Shown: positions 2,312 through 64,000 of the stretch, piece after piece
Position numbering within the stretch: the first letter of the stretch is position 1
How the letters are laid out: every line of letters begins with the position of its first letter
Assembly (NCBI GenBank): GCA_044892505.1
Contig: CM097883.1
Coordinates: 163,928,001-163,992,000, forward strand
Direction: 5' to 3'
Source of the DNA: Schmidtea nova
Taxonomy: Eukaryota
Length of the DNA stretch: 64,000 nucleotides
Position numbers and translations under genes: made by a program
The notes under the pieces: model-generated
What the model saw: the letters and a program-made list of their open reading frames with translations, nothing else
Told to the model about the DNA's origin: nothing
Database searches by the model: none

Positions 2312-5300
2312 ATGAACATGATAACAAGTTTTATGAACGAAAACCCAAGTGGAAATGAAAATGGTAAATTTATTTTTTAATTTATTATCATTTAGTATTA
2401 ATTTAGGTAATATCAATAATTCAATTGGGAAATCGATGTTAGAAAATACAGAAGAAAATGGTACTTGATCATTAACTTAATAAATTATTTAACTTTTACT
2501 TTAGGGGATGTAAATATGACTGAACAAACTACCGTACAAGCTGAGATTGTTAATAACGAGAATATTGTGAATAATGGAGTTATACCTGATGTGGTATTGA
2601 ATGTTCAATGTAAGTATTGATTAATTTTAATTATATTTCGATAATTATTTTAATCAATTTAGTAAATAACTTTAGTAAAATATTTGTAAATATATATTTT
2701 TGGTAATATTTTGTAATAATTTAGATAATCTTTACTTTACGTAAACAGTTAATTTAAACAAATTTCTTAAATATTATTTTGTAATAAGTTTTATATTAAA
2801 TTTAAATTATTTTAATAATTATTATATTTCATATTTATTTTCTAATAATTCATATTTTTTATTAATTTATTTTAATGATTTTTTTGATAAATTTAAAGAT
2901 ATTTCATATTAAGGTAAATTTTATGCGAATTATTGTAAGTCGTCAAATCATAACGATTGCCACAAGTTAATGGAGCGATTCTATCGTATTATAAATAACC
3001 AAGTCACCTTCTATTTGTGTCCCACATGTAAGAGCGCCCAACATATAAATTACATTGATTTTTATTTCCAACATTATCTCCACTTAAATCAATTCTCATG
3101 TACTAAGAAAAGTCTTTTCGCATTAATTAATAAAAGTAAACGACGAAATGTTACTGTTTGTCCTAAACCATCTAAAATAAATGTAATATCTGATGATGAA
3201 GATGTCCATTTATCAAATGACGATGTTTTAGTTATTCCTAATTTACATGTTGTCCAATATGGCGGTTCTGTTGAACCTTTGGTTAAATATAATTTGAAAA
3301 AATCGCATGCCATTGTTAAAATGGATGTGGATTCTTTAAATTTAAATAAATTAATTATTCCTTCAGCTTTATTAAATAAATTTAATTCAGTTATTTCCAA
3401 AATGGGGTATGTAAAAGTTCAATTCTGCATTGATGTAGAATTTGAAAAGAATAAGCAATTTCAATCTTTTATAATATCAAATTCTGCAAAACCAATGAGT
3501 GATACCTTTTTAGATGAAGGTATTGCTCTATTAAATGAAAAAAATACTAAAGTCTGCGAAAATGGCAGCAATTGGTTAATTAATAAAATTAAAGAAATAA
3601 GCTTTAAACTTACAAAATATTCACAGATAAGTAGATTGAGCGGTAAAGGTTCTTGTTCAACTCCACCATCATTAAATGCAAAACGTTGCACTGTCAATGT
3701 TAAAAATACTGATAACTTGTGTTTTATATATAGCATCTTGGCTATTTTAAAATACGATGATGTAGATAGCAATCATCGAAATAGAAATAGAGCAACTAAT
3801 TATAATCCCTCAGACCTTGTGTTTGATTCTTCTGATCTTCCTATGAAATTATGTAATATACCCAAATTTGAAGCGAAAAACCCCGGGTTGGCAATAAATG
3901 TCCTTTCATATGACGAGTATGATCTAAATAATATTAATGAGGAAGAGGAAGTCATGAAACATCCATTTGTAGATATTATTCATAGGTCAAAGGTTTTAGG
4001 TGGCACTCCAATTAATTTGATTTTGTTAGAGGAAAATGACTCTTTTCATTATATTGCAGTTACCAACATTAACAGACTTCTAAATTGTGACACTCTTTCT
4101 GTTACTGATGTTCAAATAAGGTGCACGTGGTGCGAGCGTTGCTTGAATGGTTTTAGATTGACTGAAGCTTTTGAGAAACATCAGGCTTTATGCACAAAAA
4201 ACCAGTTAGGTACAACTTTGTATACTTTGCCTTCAGATAAGAACTTGGAATTTAAAGATTGGTCAAAAATTGTTACACCTCCTTTCGTTGTATATGCCGA
4301 TTTTGAGGCTGTTTTACCCAAGGACGATAAGTATTTTCAACGCCACTTGCCTATTTCTGCTGGCTTGTTGCTTATTAATAACTTTACTGGCGAAAAATCG
4401 TATAAAAGTTTTTATGGTCTTAACTGTGTAGAAGAGTTTTTGACTGAAATCAATGATATAGGAGAAAAAGTAGTTTTACCTTACTTTATAAATAATTCCA
4501 AAAAGAAAATGGAATATCTTTCTCCTGCGCAAATAAGATCATTTCGTAGTTCTATTATTTGTTATTTGTGTAATAAACCTTTGAAAAATCCGGTTAAAGA
4601 TCATGACCATTATACAGGTAAATACTTGGGTGCAGCTTGCTCTAAATGCAATTTTTCTCGGCAAATAAGATTCGTCATGCCTGTACTATTTCATAATTTA
4701 CGCGGATATGATTTACATCATATCCTCAAGTATGGTTTAAATAAATTCGATAAATGGGATATAAGTTGTATTCCTACTACAAGTGAAAAGTTTTTGACTT
4801 TATATGCAAGAGTCGATAGTTTGACTATTAAATTTATCGATTCTTGCCAATTTGTAAGCTGTAGCTTAAACGATGCTGTAAAGACTTTAACAGATTTTCC
4901 TCTTACTTCATCCGAATTTATAGGGACTATTATTACATCCAAAGGTATATTCCCATATAATTTTGCAACATCTTTAGAGGTTTTACAAAATACATACGAA
5001 TTGCCACCGATTTGGGAAGGAGTTAAAATCGACGAGTATGAAAAAGCTCAACAGATATGGGATGAATTTAATTGTGAAACATTGTTTGATTATATGATGT
5101 TATACCTGAAATTGGATGTTTTCTTACTTGCCGACTTTTTTCAGCAATTTAGGTCAAAATCCATTGCACATAACCGACTTGAGCCTCTTAATTTCTTGGG
5201 AATTCCAGGTATGTCATGGAATTCAGCTTTGATGACTTTGAAATCTCCTATCGAGTTGCTTCAAGATATGGAGATGTATAATTTTTTCGAAGGGGGGATC

Positions 5301-6680
5301 CGTGGTGGGTTAACATTTGTTAACAAACACCATGTAGTATCCTCCGACGACACTGAGCTTCTTTATATAGATATAAATAATTTATATGGGTGGGCTTTAA
5401 GCCAAAAACTACCTTATAAAGAATTTAAATGGGTAACTGATAGGGAAAAATTAAATAAAATAATTTATTACTGTGAATCTGCTGATTTAGAAGTATTAAC
5501 ATTTGGATTTACATTAGAAGTCGATTTAGAAATTCCTGATTCGATTCACGACAAGCTGGATGATTTGCCAGTTGCCGCTGAAAAGATGTGTCCACCTGGC
5601 TCAAAGGTTGAGAAGTTGATGCTTACGCATTATCCCAAGAAGAACTATGTTCTTCATTGGAGACTTCTCAAACTTTTTCTTTCTCTTGGAGTAAAAATAA
5701 CTCATGTCCATAGGGCAATTAAATTTAAACAAGCATGTATTTTTAAGGATTACATCGATACCAATACCAGACTTAGAGCAGAATCAAGTAATGCTCTCGG
5801 TAAAAATTATTATAAATTATTAAATAATAGTCTCTACGGTAAAACCGTAGAGAATCTTAAAAAGCGCATAAATTTAAGATTATGTAATTCGGCTTCTAGG
5901 CTGATTACATATACTTCTAAGCCAACTTTTAAAAGGACTTTCGAAATTGACGATGATTTAGTTGCAGTGTTGCTGAATCAGGAATCGGTGTGTTTGGATA
6001 GACCCAGCTACATTGGTCAAACTGTACTGGATCTATCTAAACTTAGGATGTACCAGCTGCAGTATGAAGAGTTACAAAAATATCGTAACGAATTCAACTG
6101 CGAAATCAACATCGTTGCTGGTGACACCGATTCGTTTTTTCTTGAGATTAGAAATTGTAAGCTTGATATTCTTTTACCGGCCATGATAAGAGATAACTTA
6201 CTTGACACTTCTAATTATGATCTGAATCACCCATTATATAGTAGGAACCTTGATTCTGTCATTGGCAAATTCAAAGACGAGAATAAAGGGCTTAAGTACG
6301 AGGAGTGGGTGTTTCTTAGACCTAAATGTTATAGTCTTTTAGGTGACGAGGAAACTAATAAAGCTAAGGGGGCAACATTGGCGGGTACCGACATAAAGCA
6401 TCAGTCGTACCTGGACTGTTTTAATAATAACCAAATATTTTCTGTTCCCCAAACGAGAATCACAAGTAAAAATCACCAACTTTTTACCATTAAAAATGAA
6501 AAGATTGCACTGACAAACGCAGATGATAAAAGGAAATGGGTGGCGAAAAATAAAAGCTTGGCATATGGCCATTATATGGAAGGTGACTTGGTTATATTTC
6601 AACATACCGATCCAAGAATCAATCCAGATCAACAATTCCAAGATCCACCTGGAGATATCCAAGATGAAAGTTTTATTTAA
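2312..6680 (+). CDS. polB: Protein-primed family B DNA polymerase (Polinton-type); predicted exons 2312-2363, 2407-2460, 2505-2609, 2914-6680
   Basis: The 1236-aa ORF 2970-6680 has Exo I YADFE, Exo II HNLRGYD, Exo III YLKLDV, KGIFPY, motif A YIDINNLYG, motif B KLLNNSLYGK, motif C GDTDS and RPKCY. An inserted EndoVII-like CYLC..DHDHYTG..CSKCN is present. Three GT-AG phase-1 introns join the upstream exons in frame. Polymerase identity is very secure; the splice model is ~0.7. Confidence 0.93.
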
Positions 6681-15266: not shown

Positions 15267-17955
15267 TTATGGACCATTAGTAAAACGCTCTTTGCAAAAT
15301 GTTCTTCCATAAATTACTTCAACAGAACTAACTTTTATACTTGACTGCATTGTTGAATTCATTGCAAATTCTATATGAGGAAATGCTTCTTCCCATGTCT
15401 TAAACTGTTTCTCTTCCAAACAGCAGGAAATCCAGTCTCTTAGCATTCTAAATTGCCTTTCAATTTGTCCATTAGATTGATGATGATAAGGACTTGAATA
15501 AACAATCTTCAAGTGATACTTTACTGCCATATTTTTAAAAGCTTGGGATTCGAAACATTTTCCTTTATCAACATGAATTTCCTTTGGTGGTCCAAACTTC
15601 AATATCCACGAACTTTCCAGATTATCAATTAATGTCTTTTCTTCTTGTGTTCTTACAGCTTTTAATAATATATATTTACTAAAATAATCTATTATAGCCA
15701 TCATATATCTTTGGCCAGATGGTGTCATTTTAAAAGGGCCACAAAAATCAATATATATTTTTTCAAATGGTTCATGCGCAATTAGTTTTTCATTAACTTC
15801 TTTTGTTTTACCAGTGAATGTTTTACGTTTCTGGCAAATTTTACAAGTTGTGATAATTCTCTTAATACTTTTGTCCATTTCTTGGAAATTATAATAATTC
15901 TTTATGTAGCTTGTCGTTTTGTTGATTCCTGCATGACACAATTCTTAATAGATTTCTAGTATAAAATCGTTTTTCAAATATGAAGGAATATATATTTTAT
16001 TATTATGAGTCATAATAATTCCATTATCCACATAATAATCTTCAGTTTTTGCCGTTCTGTATGTTTTCTTTTATTTCCATTATTTCTTCAGAATTACTTT
16101 GCCATTTAAATATTTGATCTTCTATCGACATTCCTAAAATTTTAGTTTTAATTCTTTCTGCTTTAGCATCAATATGATTCATCTGACATTGTGTGCAATT
16201 TCCAATATTCAGTCGTGATAGTGCATCCGCATTATTGTGTTTCTCACCTTTGCGATATTCTAATTTCATGTCCAAACTACTTAAAAAATTTATCCAATTT
16301 TGAAACTGAGCGGTAATTGGTTTTTTTGTAGTTAACATAAATGTGATTGCCTTATGATCAGTTCTTAAAATAATTTTTTTTCCGTACAGATAATGTTTAA
16401 AATGCTGTGTAAAATGGAAAACAGATAATAATTCCTTTCTTGTTATACAGTACCCAATTTCATGTTTATTCATACTTTTTGAACCATATGCGATTATCTT
16501 TTCTTCATTATCGTCACCTCTTTGTGATAAAACAGCACCAATACAATCAAAACTAGCATCGGTGTCTAAAATGAACGTTTTATTAAAATCCGGATGACAT
16601 AGTAATGGTGCACTGATCAAACTATGTTTTTACTCGTCAAAAGCTTTTTCACATTGTGATGTCCAAATAATACTTTTGCTTTTACCTCCAATTAAAGATT
16701 CCAATGACCTAGCTATTTTTGAGTAATTTTGAATAAATTTCCTAAAGTAATTACATAATCCTAAAAAGCTCCTAAGATGTTTCACACAATTAGGCTGCTT
16801 TACATTTTTAATTGTTTCAATCTTAGACTCATGTGTTTTAATACCTTTTTCATTAATTATATGTCCAAGAAACTTTAATTCAGATACTAGGAACTTGCAT
16901 TTCTCAGGGTTAAATTTTAGTCCAGATTTCCTAATTCTAAGGAAAAGCTTATTTATTCTTTTGCTTTGTTCTTCAATAGTTTTCGAAAAGATCAGTATGT
17001 CATCTAAATAGACTAATGCTTCATTCCACATCATATCTCCAACTATTAATGTCATAAGTTTTTGAAACGTTGATGATGCGGCAGCTATTCCAAAAGGCAT
17101 CCTATTAAAGCAAAATTGGCCCTGTCTTTTAGAAAATGTTGTTTTCAATTTACTCTCTTCATCCAATTCAACTTGATAATAAGCCTTTCTTAAGTCGATC
17201 GATGAAAAATATTTGGCCCCATACAAAGAATCTAGCATTTCATCAACATTGGGAATCGGAAACGCTGGTCTTACTGTATTTGAATTTAAAATTCTAAAAT
17301 CCAAACATATTCGAATTTCAGAAGTTCCCTTTTTTGGCACACATACTATTGGTGAATTCCAAGGTGATTCACATTTCTCTATAATTTTATTTTCTTCTAG
17401 GTTTTTAAAAATTTCCTCTAGTTTTTCCTCATAGTGCATTGGTTGTCGCCGTGGCTTAATTGGTATTGGATTGCAGTTAGTTTCTATTCTGTGCTTTAAA
17501 ATATCTGTTTTGCCTATATCCCATTTATTACACATAAAAATATCTGAGAATTCAATAATTATTTCATATATCGGATTGCATCTTTCAATTTTCAATATTT
17601 CATTAATATATTTATTTTTATTATTTAATTTTAAATTATAACCAAATTTTGTTTGCAAACTGAGGACATTTTCATTACAAAATTCAACTAATTTAATATT
17701 TAAAGAATTCAATATATCTATTCCTATAATTACTTCTGGGTATAATTCCTCTGCAACGAAAAATTCTCCAGTTATTTCTTTATTGTTGAACTCTAACCTT
17801 AAAGAAACTTTCCCTAAAATCCCTAACATGCTACCGTTGGCACAAGATATCTTTCTATTTCCTTCATTAAAATATTTTAAATTCAGTTTTTCAGCAATCA
17901 TTTTAGATAAAATACTTATCTTTGCTCCTGTGTCAAATAATGAATTAAAAGTCAC
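15267..17955 (-). pseudogene. pol: Gypsy pol (protease-RT-RNase H-integrase), disrupted
   Basis: ORFs 16630-17955 (PR/RT), 16042-16620 (RH, same frame after one stop) and 15267-15941 (integrase: IDFCGP, DKGKCF, SNGQIER). Confidence 0.93.
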
Positions 17956-19437
17956 ATTATTCGATTTAACATTATTAAATGGTCTACCATCTACCTTACA
18001 ATATCATATATCCTATATATCTTTAATAACATTTACACTCAGTAATTTTAATTTTTTATTAAATATATTTAAAATAAATTCTTTTTTATAACAATCACTC
18101 ACAAATATACAGTCATTCTCATTTTGTTCATTATTACAATTATTAATTAAATAAAAATCATAATCAGATTTTTGATTGGGGAAAAATCAACATTAACATT
18201 ATCAAACAAACAATCAACCAAACAATCATTACATTCAACATTTAGGGTCCTCAAAAATTTATCATTGCTTACATGTGATTTATCGTTCCTAACATATCCC
18301 CTCTGCTCGGAGCTTTGGCATTTCTCGATATCTCTGACTGTACATCATAGTCTCTCGATTCGTCATCATCTACTGCAGCCACGCGATCTCCATTGTTTCG
18401 ATCATTTTCTTGATTAAAACTTCGATTGTATCGATTGAAATTTCCATTGTTTTGATTCGAAGTTCATTGAAATCTCATCTCGTAGTGATGTTGTTTATGA
18501 AAACATTGAAAACTTAAATGACCTGCTTTTCCACAACACGAACAACGAATATTTGGGCATTCTCGACGAATATGACCAATTTCACGGCATGCGTAACATT
18601 GCACTTTTGAATATTGATCTGAACTTCGATTTTGATAAGTGTTTCCATTTTGAGGTCTTCCACTGAAATTTCTACTGAAATTCCTTTGATAATCTGATCG
18701 TCCTTGAAATTGATTTCTTTGTAATTTTGAAAATTCATTTTTATCAATTTGATTTCACTGATTTCCATAACTATTTCTTTTTTCATTAGAATTGTATCGA
18801 CCGTTTTTCACAATTGACGCTTAAGAGGCATTTCCAACGGCTGAAACTTGTTGTATCTTTGATTTATCTTCATCCAATTTCTGTAAAATTCTTTTAATAT
18901 ATTTATTTGCCGTTGTACCTTTCTGTACTGACTCTCCATCATTTCTGAAGTCTTCTTTCGATAATTTTACTTTCAGAAAATCTTCCGTCATTTCATATCT
19001 TTTTATTTCATGTTTTTCTTCTTCATTATCAAGACAATGCTTGAGGAAGAATGTTGTCAAATTTGACATTGTTAGCTTGTGCTTCAGAATTTTCTGAACG
19101 CCTTTCTAAATTTTGCTGATGTATGTTTCTGCATCATCTTCTCTTTTTCGATAATTTAGCAAATTTTCCAAATCTTTAGCTAAATCCTGGTTTACTTCGA
19201 ACGCTAGTCTAAGCCTTTTCACATAATCTTCTTCATCTGGAATCTTGTCATATTTGTTGCGGCAATTTTCGTCCAAATAAACTCGAACAAATACCTTTCT
19301 TTGACTATTGTCTAACTGAATAATTGAAAAATATGATTCAATCTTCTCATTAAATTCTTCCAAATCGTCTCCAATTGAATAAATTTTCAGCTGTGGGAGA
19401 ATCCGTAATAATTTCTGAGTTGAAAGCGTGGTCGCCA

Positions 19438-57814: not shown

Positions 57815-57995
57815 ATGACTATAGATCAAATTTTTTTTATAAACAATAATACAATATTTCGGCACAGCCTTTATCAAGTGTGTACACACTTGATAAAGGC
57901 TGTGCCGAAATATTGTGTTATTGTTTATAAAAAAAATTTGATCTATAGTCATTATGAGAATTATTGATAATAATAATAAAAAAAGATCAAAGGTG
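57815..57995. repeat. Best-preserved hammerhead-like palindrome, centre gtgtgtacacac (no loop)
   Basis: Near-perfect reverse-complement arms centred at ~57883 (left arm cut by Ns after ~68 bp), bounded by N-runs. Confidence 0.9.
57886..57918 (+). ncRNA. Putative minimal type I hammerhead ribozyme (U3-A8 variant)
   Basis: ACAC (stem I), UUGAUAA (core 3-9), extra A, GGC ugu GCC (stem II), GAA, AUAU (palindromic helix III), U (cleavage nucleotide), GUGU (stem I). Activity is untested. Confidence 0.6.
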
Positions 57996-58469
57996 ANNNN
58001 NNNNNNNNNNNNNNNNNNNNNNNNNNNNNNNNNNNNNNNNNNNNNNNNNNNNNNNNNNNNNNNNNNNNNNNNNNNNNNNNNNNNNNNNNNNNNNNNNNNN
58101 NNNNNNNNNNNNNNNNNNNNNNNNNNNNNNNNNNNNNNNNNNNNNNNNNNNNNNNNNNNNNNNNNNNNNNNNNNNNNNNNNNNNNNNNNNNNNNNNNNNN
58201 NNNNNNNNNNNNNNNNNNNNNNNNNNNNNNNNNNNNNNNNNNNNNNNNNNNNNNNNNNNNNNNNNNNNNNNNNNNNNNNNNNNNNNNNNNNNNNNNNNNN
58301 NNNNNNNNNNNNNNNNNNNNNNNNNNNNNNNNNNNNNNNNNNNNNNNNNNNNNNNNNNNNNNNNNNNNNNNNNNNNNNNNNNNNNNNNNNNNNNNNNNTA
58401 TAGGAATTTGAAAATAAAACTTGATTGGAAAACAATTAGAAATTTACTAGAGAAATAACAAAGAGAAAC

Positions 58470-60216
58470 TGGTCGCGCCCGCTCTTAAAATATTTTAAAA
58501 TTAATAAAATAATAATTAAAATAATTAATCGGGTGCTTGATCGCTATGAGAGATTGTGGGGCGAGCCTGGAAGCCGTTAGACAGTCATATCGAAATCTAT
58601 ATAAAGCTTATATGATGCAAGTATTGATTTAACTCAATCTGAAGACGAAAATGTTCACGTGAAAAAGAAACGATCTGAATCATCACATGAAACTTATAAT
58701 CATAATCTAATTCAAATAAACAATGATATCTTTAAAGTTTTCTACTCCACCGAAGATCTTTGTGAACAATATCTCTCAATGCAACGGCAAATAAATCGCT
58801 AAGTCATTAAAACCCAATACTCGATAAATTGCCCAAAATGTCACATTCAATTTCTAAATTGTAACTACCTTTGGATAGTTCGGGAATTCTGCGTGGAGTT
58901 CAGCAGGTGGCGATTTCTCGGCGTGCGCACGCGGACGCGAGGGTCTTGGAATCGCTGTTTAAGTTGGAATTATGCGTGTAATTGTCTGTGTGCGCGTCTG
59001 TGATATGTGGTGATCAGATATTTGGGCTTTTGGTGTCGTTCTATGGGAGCTTGCTACATATGGGTTATCTCCTTACCCTGGAATAGAATTACATGATGTT
59101 TATCATATCTTAGAAAAAGGCTATCGAATGGATCGTCCTGAAGGATGTCCAGAAATAGTATATGGGATAATGCTCCAATGTTGGCAATGGGATCCATTAT
59201 TGAGACCATCATTTGCTCAATTGTACTCAAAACTATATTATATTTGTTTCTCTCAGAATGTCGATTGGTCATATCAATTCAACAACTCATTAAGCATGGA
59301 TAAAAGCCAATTTAAAACATCGAAGGAATCTTAATGAAAACGCGTTTCATCGCGTCTGTGTGCGCGGTGGTGTTATATCGATTCGTGTTTTCTTAGCATG
59401 CGCACACAGACGCGAGTAGTTCCAGGTTGGCTAAGAATAATTAATCCATGAATTGGAGTTTTTGGACTTTTAATTTTGCGAATGTATTTGTAATTTTTTT
59501 GGAGATTTGGAATTATGAATAAAAATCAAGATGTTTTAAATTTGTTTAATATGCATTACTTATGAATTCTTAAATTATTGAAATGTCATATCGCTCTCGA
59601 TTTAAAAATGTTGCCGATACTATGGAAGAAGAAGCTCGCAAATTACAAGCAAATGAAGAACCTGCAATCGTTTATCATCAGTTTATTGAAACTTTTGAAG
59701 AGCCACCGAAAGTTAATAAGACATGGGTTAAAGGTGCTGGTAAACTCTATCAGCTGTTAATGAAAAAGGTGGATTTGGAACTGATTAAGCATTTGATTGG
59801 CGAGGTAATGGTTTGGTGCTTGGGACATGCTGATTCAGCTGAGGATGTGTTGGATATCATTTTCACACAGATTGATAACACTGTTGGATATGCTACCGAT
59901 AAATCTGTTGAGAATTCCAATGCTGCTGGTCTCAATCAGATTGTTGTGTTCCTTTTCCTCGTTTCGGATATCCTTCACAATTCCTGCACTAGAGTGCGAA
60001 ACACGTCTTTTGATCGGAAATACATCGAAAACAGATTGCCTCAAATGATGGTATTTCTGAATCAATCTTGTCTAGCGATTGCTAGTGATATGTTTACCAA
60101 TCCCGATAGATATCCTTTGTCGGATAGTGAGGAGAATTTCAATTTGTCAATGATTAAATCTCGCGTTCTCAGTCCAAAAAATGAGGAAAGCAATCGGAGC
60201 TGGATGCGCCGATCCA
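58470..60216 (+). repeat. Inferred 5' LTR (~1747 bp, TG...CA)
   Basis: Starts TGGTCGCGC and ends GCGCCGATCCA (imperfect inverted termini) one base before the PBS. Only the first 598 bp can be verified against the 3' copy in this window. Confidence 0.65.
59014..59334 (+). pseudogene. ABL: Captured, uninterrupted Abl-like tyrosine kinase C-lobe fragment (subdomains IX-XI)
   Basis: [69 protein letters not shown] closely parallels c-Abl [37 protein letters not shown]..RPSFA. It is preceded by an in-frame TGA, and its start is repeated at ~63947-64000. Confidence 0.88.
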
Positions 60217-63200
60217 TTGGTAGCAGAGCGTGGTTCCCTTCGGGGGGCCACGCACGGCGGGTAAGCTTCTCGATTGCTTATAGCGGTCACAGCGCCGCAT
60301 GTTTTTCTAAAAATATTAAAAACTTAAAATTAATAATGAATTTAATGGGGGGATTTAGCGCTGTAATGGGCCCCAGCGACCATCCCCTTCCCTTAAGCTC
60401 AGTTGGGTCTGAGAACGAAAAGGATGGGTCACCTGAAAATACGTATTTGAAACAGGTTATTAAGCTTGATGGTAGCCGTAGTGATAAATCAAGCATGCCC
60501 TTTAGTGAGAAACTTAGGGATACTTATGATAATCCCACAAAACTTGTATGTGGTGAAAAGCAAACTTTAACTAAAGATTTTGATAAAACAAAAAATAAAA
60601 AAAGATCATTTGATGAATCAAATAGACAAAGGGATAAAATTGTGTCACCTGCTTATGAAGCAATATGTATAGGAAAAGATAACTCGAGATTTAAAGGTGT
60701 AGAGGTTAGTAGGTGGACCGGTTATATCAGGGGAGATTTTATATTGAATACCAACCGGGAAATGTTGCAACAAAATAGATTTTTGAAAGTATTCAGAAAA
60801 GAGTTAGGGGGAAAAGGTTTAGAACTTTTTGAGCGAACAATAGAATACAAAGTTAATTATAAAAAGTTTTATGTTCAAGTTGCTAAAAATATTAAAGTGG
60901 AAATGCATGAAGACAGTGTAAATGAAAATAAAATAGCGGAATGTTTGTGTTTTTATTCAATGCCAAGTGGTGATGCAAGTACAGGTTTAAAAGAGTATAG
61001 TCCGCGAATGAAAGAAAATAAAACGGAGTCAACTTTGCATTTGGGACCACGATTGAGAGGTGGTATACAGATGTTTGTGAGGACTTTATCAGGGAAAACT
61101 ATTACCCTGGAAGTTGAATCAAGTGACACAATCGAGAAAGTAAAAGCGAGAATACAAGACAAAGAAGGCATTCCACCTGACCAGCAAAAGTTGATCTTCG
61201 CCGGTAAACAACTGGAAGACGGACGAACATTATGTTATTATAATATGCAAGGGGAATCTACCTTGCATTTGGGGTTGAGACTACGAGGAGGTATGAAAAC
61301 CCAAGACAAACAGTTGCAGCTAAAGAATGGGATCGAGAAGCTCTGCGTTCAGAAGACGCATCTAACCAGACTATTCAGGAGAGCCTCAGAATACCTGTCG
61401 GAAGCGGATCGCGTGCAACGTCAAGAGGAATACGAAGAAGACTTTGATGAAGTGCTGGAGGACTGGAGCAGGCTGAAGAGCTTAGCAGAAGAGTTGGGAG
61501 ACCTGGAAGCTGTCAAACGCTTTGATCAGGAATTAGATGCTATTGAAGAGCAAAATGAACATTTAGGGAGATTAGAGAGAGACAAAAGCATAGTCGACAA
61601 AGCGAATTGCTACCCAGGAAAAAGAATGTTGGACAAAAGCATTGAAAGCCAAGAGAGAGACGTACCGTCAGAAAGAACAATTTCAGAAGTGAACAAGGTA
61701 AAAAATAGTTTGAAAGAGAAAAATGGGAATTTGATAAATGGAGAGAAATTTGAGGAAGTGCAGGAGGACTGGAGCAAGCTAAAGAGCTTAGCAGAAGAGT
61801 TGGGGGACCTGGAAGCTGCCAGACATTTTGAGCAAGAATTAGATGCTATTGAAAAGCAAAATGAACATTTAGTGAGGAAAATGGTAGAAACAAATCTTAA
61901 CGAAGGTTCACGGGTAGCCGCTATCCGAGGAATGTCAGGTGGAGGTTCAGTTGAAAGGATATTCAAGATGGACGAGAGCGGAGTCGACAAAGCAAATCGC
62001 TATCCAGAAAAAAGAAGGATGGACAAAAGCATTGAAAGCCAAGAGATAGAAGTATCGTCAGAAAGAACAATATCAGAATTGAACAAAGAAATAAATAGTT
62101 TGAAAGAGAAAAATGGGAATTTGATAAATGAAAAACTAAATGATAAAAATGAATTCGAAAATAGAAAAAATAAAATGGAATTGGAATTAGAAAAAGAAAG
62201 AAGCAGGACAATGTCGTTAAAATTGAGAGAAAAGGAGGTGGCCGATTTAGAGACGAAAATGAAGTCTTGCGAGGTTAATTATGAGAATTTATCGAAAAGC
62301 AAGAATGAAATTCAAAGTAAATTGGAATCTTTATTTGAAGAATATTCAAAATTATTTGACGAGCTGGCATTAGTTAAAACTCACAAGGGTGAGCTGGAAA
62401 CGAATTTGAGGAATTATGAAATCGAAACAAAACGCTCTCTTGCTGACAAGTCAGGTTTAATAACACAGCTTCAATTAAAAATAGAAGTTCTTCAAAAGAA
62501 AATAGAAACGATTGAATTAGATCGTAAAAAGGAAATTAATGAATCAGAAGTAAAATTAGCGAATTTGGCTGAAACTGTAGAAACGTTGTCCGCTGAGATA
62601 GAAAATGTAAATGATATTAATGTTAAATTGGCAGCTGTAAATCGAGAACTAGAAATAAAAATTGAACGAAATGAAATCGATTTAAATGAGCTTACTGCGA
62701 AAGGAAGGCATTTAGATGTGGAAATGAAAGAAAAGGAAAATGATTACCTAGAAAAACTTCGAGAGGCTAATGACGAAATCGTTTCTCAGCAAACCTTGGT
62801 GAAGGATTTGACGGAATTAAATGGTAATTTAATAATTAAACTAAATGACAGTCTGGGAATGATTGAAGATATTAAATTAAACTTAATGCCTTTAATGATA
62901 GAAAAGGATTTCTTGAAAATGGGACTTAGTACTAAAAAGGAGTTGGTTAAAGAAGTCTCAAGGAAATTGGAAACAAATATTGAAGAGGAAATTTATATTT
63001 CGAACAATATAATGAATATTGACGAAAAATTGGTCGAATCCAAAAGAGTTGAAGAATTAATTGAGAGCCAGTTGATTAAATTAGAAGTTAATGTAAAGGA
63101 AAATAGAACGAAATGGTGTATGCTGCATAGTTCGGTTGTGGGGATTGATGGGGAAATTACAAAGGTTTGGATATTGTTTTACACAGTTGCAAAATTCATA

Positions 63201-63374
63201 AATAAAGGCATCATGCAAGAGGCATGGATGCAAAGAATTGATTGGAAGGAAATACTTCCTCCAGAAATGATAAAGAAGATAAAGGTGGCGAGTCTTCCAC
63301 ATTCAGAATTAAAGGCGGACTCGTGGAGAGTTATTATTGGTCATGGAGAAAGAGAGAAGTGGATGAAGTGTTGA
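59583..63374 (+). CDS. 1263-aa chimeric ORF: U2SURP N-terminal and CID fragments, HSP90 middle-domain fragment, polyubiquitin piece, duplicated helical segment, long coiled coil, possible BEL/Pao pol-like tail
   Basis: [33 protein letters not shown] (U2SURP CID). [40 protein letters not shown] (HSP90, 60723-61022). Full ubiquitin at 61065-61292 bounded by RLRGG on both sides. No stop codons. Confidence 0.85.
60218..60235 (+). other. Primer-binding site complementary to the 3' end of tRNA-iMet
   Basis: The first 11 nt TGGTAGCAGAG are the complement of the metazoan initiator tRNA end CUCUGCUACCA. Positioned directly after ..CCA-T. Confidence 0.8.
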
Positions 63375-63389
63375 TGTTGACAGAATGTC

Positions 63390-64000
63390 AAAGGGGGGAG
63401 AATGGTCGCGCCCGCTCTTAAAATATTTTAAAATTAATAAAATAATAATTAAAATAATTAATCGGGTGCTTGATCGCTATGAGAGATTGTGGGGCGAGCC
63501 TGGAAGCCGTTAGACAGTCATATCGAAATCTATATAAAGCTTATATGATGCAAGTATTGATTTAACTCAATCTGAAGACGAAAATGATCACGTGAAAAAG
63601 AAACGATCTGAATCATCACATGAAACTTATAATCATAATCTAATTCAAATAAACAATGATATCTTTAAAGTTTTCTACTCCACCGAAGATCTTTGTGAAC
63701 AATATCTCTCAATGCAACGGCAAATAAATCGCTAAGTCATTAAAACCCAATACTCGATAAATTGCCCAAAATGTCACATTCAATTTCTAAATTGTAACTA
63801 CCTTTGGATAGTTCGGGAATTCTGCGTGGAGTTCAGCAGGTGGCGATTTCTCGGCGTGCGCACGCGGACGCGAGGGTCTTGGAATCGCTGTTTAAGTTGG
63901 AATTATGCGTGTAATTGTCTGTGTGCGCGTCTGTGATATGTGGTGATCAGATATTTGGGCTTTTGGTGTCGTTCTATGGGAGCTTGCTACATATGGGTTA
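63390..64000 (+). repeat. Polypurine tract (63390-63402) and partial 3' LTR (63403-64000)
   Basis: The purine run ends immediately before the TG at which identity with 58470 begins. Confidence 0.88.

Follow-up and report, generated by a model that had tools for sequence, protein, structure and literature searches.

A spliced fragment of host Abl mRNA within the LTRs of a leader-bearing, non-autonomous BEL/Pao element of Schmidtea nova

The window analyzed here is a stretch of 64,000 nucleotides (64 kb) of Schmidtea nova DNA, which near its end contains a non-autonomous BEL/Pao element running from position 58470 to 65149 on the forward (+) strand, as do all parts of the element described below. 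The last part lies outside the window and was recovered by fetching the sequence past it. The element has the direct repeats with TG...CA ends, target site duplication (TSD), primer binding site (PBS), and polypurine tract (PPT) of an LTR retrotransposon. The 5' LTR (58470 to 60216) is 1747 bp long, and the 3' LTR, also of 1747 bp, occupies 63403 to 64000 in the window, with its leader at 63506 and its Abl sequence from 63946. The repeat does not end just after 64000 but continues to window-equivalent 65149; the whole Abl piece is thus present in both LTRs, in agreement with the first-pass annotation, which had placed an Abl kinase fragment inside the LTR and copied to both ends. The TSD (GAAAC) lies at 58465 to 58469, with its second copy directly 3' of the 3' LTR, outside the window. 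The PBS (60218 to 60235) is complementary to the 3' end of tRNA-Met and to tRNA-Met genes in the same genome, and the PPT lies at 63390 to 63402. Between the two LTRs there are 13 differences, 12 of which lie within the last 241 nt, and each end of the window LTR resembles different siblings, with 99.3-99.7% identity. On this comparison, the element is therefore a very young recombinant. An insertion age calculated from the 13 mismatches was dropped, since their clustering and the sibling matches point to recombination or conversion.

Complete copies were sought through Peptidase_A17, for which 150 of 675 candidates were scored and nine of these loci inspected. Three of the nine have LTR ends, PBS, and PPT identical in kind to those of the window copy. 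One of these three (L273/L274), with window-type LTR ends, harbors an unbroken single ORF of 2572 aa with HSP90, ubiquitin, DUF1759 Gag, zinc knuckle, protease, reverse transcriptase (RT), Peptidase_A17, and DUF5641 domains; its integrase is visible as an H2C2 zinc domain with a score below the cut-off. The family as a whole is BEL/Pao. The window copy has no capsid domain, RT, or integrase of its own, retaining only a Gag stub and two pol remnants, and it is a non-autonomous BEL/Pao derivative, because the complete copies have its LTR ends, PBS, and PPT. An Rfam scan of the element gave 0 matches. The predicted primer of these BEL families is encoded by tRNA-Met genes repeated in tandem every 458 bp (G000:C1:510.09-510.13 Mb, L300-L302), and a 19-nt tRNA-Met pattern has 1035 matches across the genome. 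A total of 2710 pattern matches was dropped as a PBS count, since 1035 of these belong to a longer pattern and, where checked, all of those had a tRNA-like context.

The LTR is a mosaic of element and host sequence. It begins with a 5' block (58470 to 58572), followed by a 42-nt spliced leader, SL1 (58573 to 58614), which differs by few substitutions from SL RNA genes. Cargo 1, the 5' end of a zinc-finger mRNA, lies at 58615 to 58866. Two copies of an LTR core flank cargo 2, the spliced Abl mRNA piece (59013 to 59328): core copy A (58867 to 59012) forms the 5' arm of a hairpin and ends where cargo-free LTRs have a donor-like GTG/GTGAG site, and core copy B (59329 to 59440), an inverted-repeat hairpin (z -3.7), is also found in sister families. 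Cargo 3, the 5' part of a U2SURP mRNA, lies at 59535 to 60022. Among 25 LTRs compared, the only part common to all is the first ~145 bp, comprising the 5' block and the leader, and interior positions of the window LTR are each common to 4 to 21 others. Because only these first ~145 bp are common to all, the 5' block may correspond to U3 and contain the promoter, and the leader would then lie near the 5' boundary of the RNA. The hairpin core was dropped as a candidate essential part because, of 23 SL-type LTRs examined, 10 do not contain its motif.

The frame at 59014-59334, attributed to an Abl kinase C-lobe in the first-pass annotation, matches only the C-lobe of the Pfam tyrosine-kinase model (positions 185-258 of 258, E 1e-25). 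Among solved structures, the best single-domain scores were those of ABL1 chains (119 bits), and the top whole-sequence row was a two-kinase EGFR chain with 62 bits per domain. The best longer homologue was an SH3-SH2-kinase protein of Schmidtea mediterranea, with 100% identity over 76 aa. The frame is immediately preceded by a stop codon, and a C-lobe so preceded could not give an active kinase, as had also been supposed. The Abl-derived DNA is 59013-59328 and comprises two complete host exons (167 and 120 nt) and the beginning of a third; the stop codon of the frame (59332-59334) derives from the LTR. The host Abl gene, with its introns, lies at G000:C3:79.16-79.20 Mb. Its introns of 43 and 57 nt (GT..AG) are cleanly removed from the LTR copy, which differs from it at 2 of 311 bases. 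The reading of the sequence as another kinase family with retained introns, raised beforehand, therefore fails, Abl being the best match and the introns gone. A genuine host exon, a tandem duplication, and a second Abl gene were likewise ruled out, the intron-bearing host gene sitting elsewhere. A second Abl-like gene does exist at G000:C1:357.05 Mb (L052), with 72% over the same exon and without the long intron at the captured boundary.

Against this host gene, the genome contains the Abl piece in 12 LTR copies at 10 loci; two of the loci are full elements, and the others are solo LTRs or truncated copies. The suggested dispersal through solo LTRs is borne out by L015, L018, and L022, which have 5-bp TSDs, and by L019 and L020, which lie in simple repeats. 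The copies are not all alike. In L022, Abl extends up to the stop codon and covers five exons, with a 5.8-kb intron gone and an internal deletion at an AATGAT repeat, and in L054 the last two Abl exons are fused to an F-box piece. Intron loss, the partial nature of the copy, and the absence of poly(A) and of a TSD of its own correspond to an LTR-mediated retrocopy, although the Abl sequence lies in the LTR and does not replace internal ORF sequence as in such retrocopies.

Conserved genes are found among the cargos (proteasome alpha subunit, LEM, RRM, TRIP12-like, and F-box), which would fit Abl being kept for a benefit to the element, either as a piece of protein or because small-RNA silencing of the LTR would be costly to the host; a conflict of this kind has reportedly been described in a maize study (10.1101/777037). 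We regard such a benefit as very unlikely. Private changes in the 12 Abl copies comprise 7 non-synonymous and 3 synonymous (80% non-synonymous expected), with 2 further synonymous differences common to the copies, and these counts give no sign of protein-level selection on the piece. The in-frame stop stands just 5' of the frame, and sibling LTRs have other cargo in place of Abl, or none. For these reasons, and since Abl is one of dozens of cargos in a leader-built LTR, the piece is probably a neutral passenger. Its reuse as a spliced exon, also proposed in the first pass, is unlikely because the host acceptor is lost at the Abl junction.

The 3' junction of the Abl piece is a 6-bp microhomology (AAGGAA, 59323-59328). 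At the 5' junction the similarity is imperfect, yet the joint is of an exact splice type: the piece begins exactly at the host acceptor downstream of an 18.5-kb intron, and at the same position cargo-free LTRs have the GTG/GTGAG site, located in a hairpin loop. Before this exon the host mRNA ends in CATCCAA and the LTR in TGTGGTG, which places the joint at the exon boundary itself. The 19-mer preceding the junction occurs at 61 exact sites. The native GTG.. follows it in 33 of these, Abl in 12, a second gene in 15, and an inserted DNA transposon in 1. The second gene, joined at the same nucleotide, also begins at its host acceptor (CTCAG/GAATG) and has lost two introns. The DNA-transposon case (L119, G000:C2:200.38 Mb), an insertion of ~1.1 kb adjoining the LTR donor site, had been considered a third capture and was dropped, since it has 17-bp terminal inverted repeats.

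These joints could alternatively have arisen, like those of Drosophila LTR retrocopies, by template switching at both ends of the Abl piece through short imperfect similarity, with the exon boundary and donor-like site coinciding by chance or through pausing near exon junctions. The start of the Abl exon matches the post-donor 22-mer of the LTR at 14 of 22 bases, the best of 2194 Abl coding windows, which is what switching alone would predict, and the 3' junction has its microhomology. No element is present in the host Abl intron, and neither the 90 kb covered at the Abl locus nor the 40 kb surrounding the second gene contains an LTR copy. Moreover, joints at exon boundaries are possible without splicing, because in L054 an 8-bp microhomology suffices to account for the joint at the Abl exon start. 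Nevertheless, the unrelated second cargo enters at the same nucleotide, also at an acceptor, with only 9 of 22 bases matching the same 22-mer, and upstream of the junction no base is in common except the G of the acceptor. We consider switching at both ends unlikely, and Abl probably entered by splicing from the LTR donor.

Such an entry might have proceeded as follows. First, an LTR transcript would be spliced from the GTG/GTGAG donor to the Abl acceptor past the 18.5-kb intron, either in cis, from a copy since gone, or in trans. Second, the chimeric RNA would be co-packaged by the proteins of complete copies with the same LTR ends, PBS, and PPT. Third, RT would leave the element RNA at a short microhomology, copy the chimeric RNA, and return, which would place Abl between two copies of the LTR core; the junctions themselves are as described above. 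The piece, present in both LTRs, was then dispersed through solo LTRs.

The second recurrent capture point is the leader. It matches an SL RNA exon ending in AUG, and an identical leader is present in three SL RNA genes of this genome. The search for such genes gave 38 matches, of which 32 loci were inspected and 3 were genes with a GT donor and downstream hairpins. The three SL1 RNA genes lie within 4 kb at G000:C2:409.01 Mb (L140), two forward and one reverse. An Sm-type site is a hallmark of SL RNAs. The LTR leaders inspected have no GT donor, Sm site, or 3' hairpin, all of which are present in L140. By these features the LTR leader reads as an SL1 exon and not as an SL RNA gene, and it is the same as the SmedSL1 printed in PMC10899757 (Fig S6).

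The LTR junction together with the first 25 nt of the leader gave 432 exact matches genome-wide and 0 for the control; as exact matches, these exclude variant leaders such as the window's own. In 27 of the first 30 of these loci the leader lies 101-114 nt from the LTR start, which was not found in the other 3, and the same 30 loci show 21 distinct 25-nt continuations, some being variants of one cargo. Overall, cargo starts after the leader form 36 clusters in 222 redundant hits, and as one gene accounts for two of the clusters, the total is ~35 cargos, in a sample that consists of all fetched loci and is biased by the searches made. Sibling LTR pairs are mostly 99.4-100% identical and contain different host genes, and the spread is recent. 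In an F-box lineage only ~25 nt of the leader are left; its LTR pairs are nevertheless near-identical, which weighs against a role of the leader in capture.

A non-LTR source was sought for 8 cargos. For 7 of them a host locus has an acceptor AG where the leader ends in the LTR, six exactly in register and one 1 nt off within a T run. For cargo 1, the zinc-finger locus at G000:C3:93.54 Mb has TTTTAG immediately 5' of the first cargo base, and this cargo extends further in L030. For the LEM cargo no host locus was found, all 10 exact matches being LTRs, and no donor of the L014-type cargo was found among the best 40 matches.

The leader might also have no role in capture, whole 5' ends of SL-bearing mRNAs having entered by non-homologous jumps or by DNA-level exchange with processed pseudogenes. 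Just 5' of the leader, short AAGCCG repeats vary in number, as repeated run-off at an mRNA 5' end might leave them, and partial leaders associated with LTR and LINE elements of parasitic flatworms are ascribed to trans-spliced element RNAs in the available part of PMC12582326. Such a passive leader would hardly keep the near-constant distance from the LTR start described above; in addition, leader variants at positions 5, 8, and 13 recur ahead of different cargos, and the tested host loci have acceptors before the cargo sequence instead of leaders. We consider a passive leader quite unlikely. Differences among 18 leader copies number 23 in the 5' half and 12 in the 3' half, a faint hint of a 5'-to-3' gradient, given that these copies are related and that the variants might be other host SL genes.

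Alternatively to passive inheritance, RT may switch onto any SL-bearing mRNA and return via the 42-nt leader; switching of this kind would account for the ~35 cargos whose sequence starts directly after the leader. Taken together, Abl appears as a spliced host-mRNA fragment in the LTRs of a leader-bearing non-autonomous BEL/Pao element, for which entry by donor splicing plus an RT template switch is the likely route, with the leader likely serving as a homology handle.

The third slot supplies coding sequence to the element. The U2SURP cargo, altered by intron removal and microhomology deletions, contributes a 5' UTR, a start codon at 59583, the N-terminus, and a CID-region piece. It supplies the start of an ORF of 1266 aa (59574 to 63374), which begins in the LTR and reads through the PBS. 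Within this ORF lie a fragment of HSP90 (60735 to 61025), a ubiquitin (61065 to 61292) preceded by the tail of a second one and abutting the Gag region with its LRGG end, and an N-terminal Gag stub with an internal duplication (61293 to 62051), which ends short of the DUF1759 domain of complete copies. Most of gag-pol is replaced by a coiled-coil stretch (62061 to 63080), followed by two short pol remnants of 35 and 29 aa (63090 to 63284), the second from the Pao Peptidase_A17 region. The source of the coiled coil was not found: the best 40 DNA matches were all copies of 97-100%, and the Atlas returned generic coiled coils with low recognition.

Siblings that match the window copy in the Abl-bearing 5' half have different sequences in the third slot, which we take to be SMYD5-like and UTP20-like; Pfam gave no match for them. 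Pieces in more distant families include proteasome alpha, EF-hand, Vps35, prenyltransferase, and HSP70. The frame from LTR cargo into the PBS is open in 19 of 20 copies, representing about six cargo types, and remains open for >1000 codons past the PBS in 13 of these 20. A ubiquitin ending in GG stands just 5' of Gag in all 10 ORFs checked. The third-slot cargo provides a start codon, and host deubiquitinases would cut after the ubiquitin GG, freeing Gag from any fused N-terminus, as predicted from general knowledge of ubiquitin fusions. In sister BEL families without the leader (L023-L027, L275-L287), the ORF also begins in the LTR, where the N-terminus is host-derived and exchangeable (EF-hand, Vps35, prenyltransferase), and ubiquitin lies ahead of Gag together with HSP70 or HSP90.

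Tentatively, and with slightly more doubt than confidence, we propose that this lineage has built the SL into the U3/R boundary of its LTR as a strand-transfer repeat, by which co-packaged trans-spliced mRNAs would replace the 5' end of the element, with the ubiquitin cut making Gag indifferent to the fusion. If so, the family would continually draw on the transcriptome of the stem cells and reshuffle it across hundreds of LTRs.

Single features of this element have counterparts elsewhere. In Abelson virus, abl was captured by splicing followed by recombination, as in other acutely transforming retroviruses; Cassandra elements have 5S RNA sequence in their LTRs; and pestivirus polyproteins use ubiquitin inserts as a processing signal. 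Each of these shows one feature, whereas here all three are combined in one retrotransposon lineage. Unlike a transducing retrovirus of the v-abl type, the element shows neither a Gag-Abl fusion nor an intact kinase or env, and Abl lies outside the Gag ORF. The closest precedent is LTR-mediated retroposition in animals, in which partial intronless mRNA copies occur in LTR elements, Pao/BEL examples included (PMC5131818, available part). Those retrocopies show microsimilarity at junctions, as does the 3' end of the Abl piece, and they likewise form multi-gene chimeras and spread as non-autonomous elements. However, they replace the internal ORF, whereas here the copies lie in the LTR, two captures begin at one donor-like site, and the SL marks a recurrent capture point.

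In S. mediterranea, the LTR elements BEL1-I_SM and Burro/GYPSM1 have captured host domains (PMC3597677 and PMC6431247, available parts): in BEL1-I_SM a single truncated host fragment lies close to where the internal ORF begins, and in Burro a ubiquitin/SUMO-like domain is one of many. The available parts of these sources make no mention of LTR cargo, SL, copy-to-copy cargo turnover, or a ubiquitin-Gag junction, all of them features of the element described here. In Echinococcus, transcripts of ta-TRIM solo LTRs are cis-spliced to downstream host acceptors, one of them a trans-splice acceptor (PMC4558846, available part), which resembles the step proposed first for Abl. There, the LTRs are reported as alternative promoters, and the spliced product does not re-enter an LTR as is proposed here. 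Partial leaders have been found beside LTR and LINE elements in parasitic flatworms (PMC12582326) and relict leaders in dinoflagellates (PMC3229502). In the available parts of both reports, SL sequence likewise returns to genomic DNA via reverse transcription; those are unexplained partial leaders or recycled genes, whereas here the leader is a fixed LTR component accompanied by changing host cargo. Nothing further on these features was found in the available parts of PMC2770079 and PMC9911081 or in the PMC7346339 supplements. Within the literature searched, mostly non-subscription papers, we found no description of LTRs that combine a fixed leader with variable host cargo, nor of a ubiquitin-Gag junction in BEL elements.

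Taken by itself, the Abl fragment is a modest instance of a process already known; the LTR around it is new, and the mechanism of capture proposed for it is unusual and testable. LTR gene capture is known as a rare accident in the internal region. In this young and abundant family it is the usual condition, with capture points set by host RNA-processing signals, namely the spliced leader and a splice donor. Should the leader be a transfer handle, it would link trans-splicing directly and mechanistically to retroposition and provide a dated record of mRNAs entering particles. The system also offers a chance to ask whether, in planarian stem cells, piRNA silencing is weakened by cargo from host genes. 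In practical terms, hundreds of LTRs with near-identical exons and leaders are a source of trouble for gene annotation, SL-site calling, RNAi design, and small-RNA mapping.

Further observations concern the surroundings of the element and its relatives. (AAT)n/(ATT)n microsatellites hold L014, L019, L020, L021, L029, L030, L037, L039, L041, L043, L044, L046, L269, and L283, which suggests a target preference of the element for these repeats. Head-to-tail arrays of elements with ~5.0-5.3 kb spacing, apparently with LTRs in common, occur in G000 at C1:139.08-139.11 Mb, C1:485.05-485.08 Mb, C2:291.30-291.32 Mb, and C2:434.49-434.50 Mb. In the window, a near-perfect palindrome of 138 bp (57815-57952) has related copies near 40450-40570 and 52897-52942; it is also found in the host Abl intron and in L024 and is probably a dispersed MITE-like repeat. 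A 1255-aa open frame lies at 2913-6677 (+), its DNA matching repeats in several fetched loci, and at 15270-18003 (-) three frames resemble, by eye, the protease, RT/RNase H, and integrase of a Gypsy-type element.
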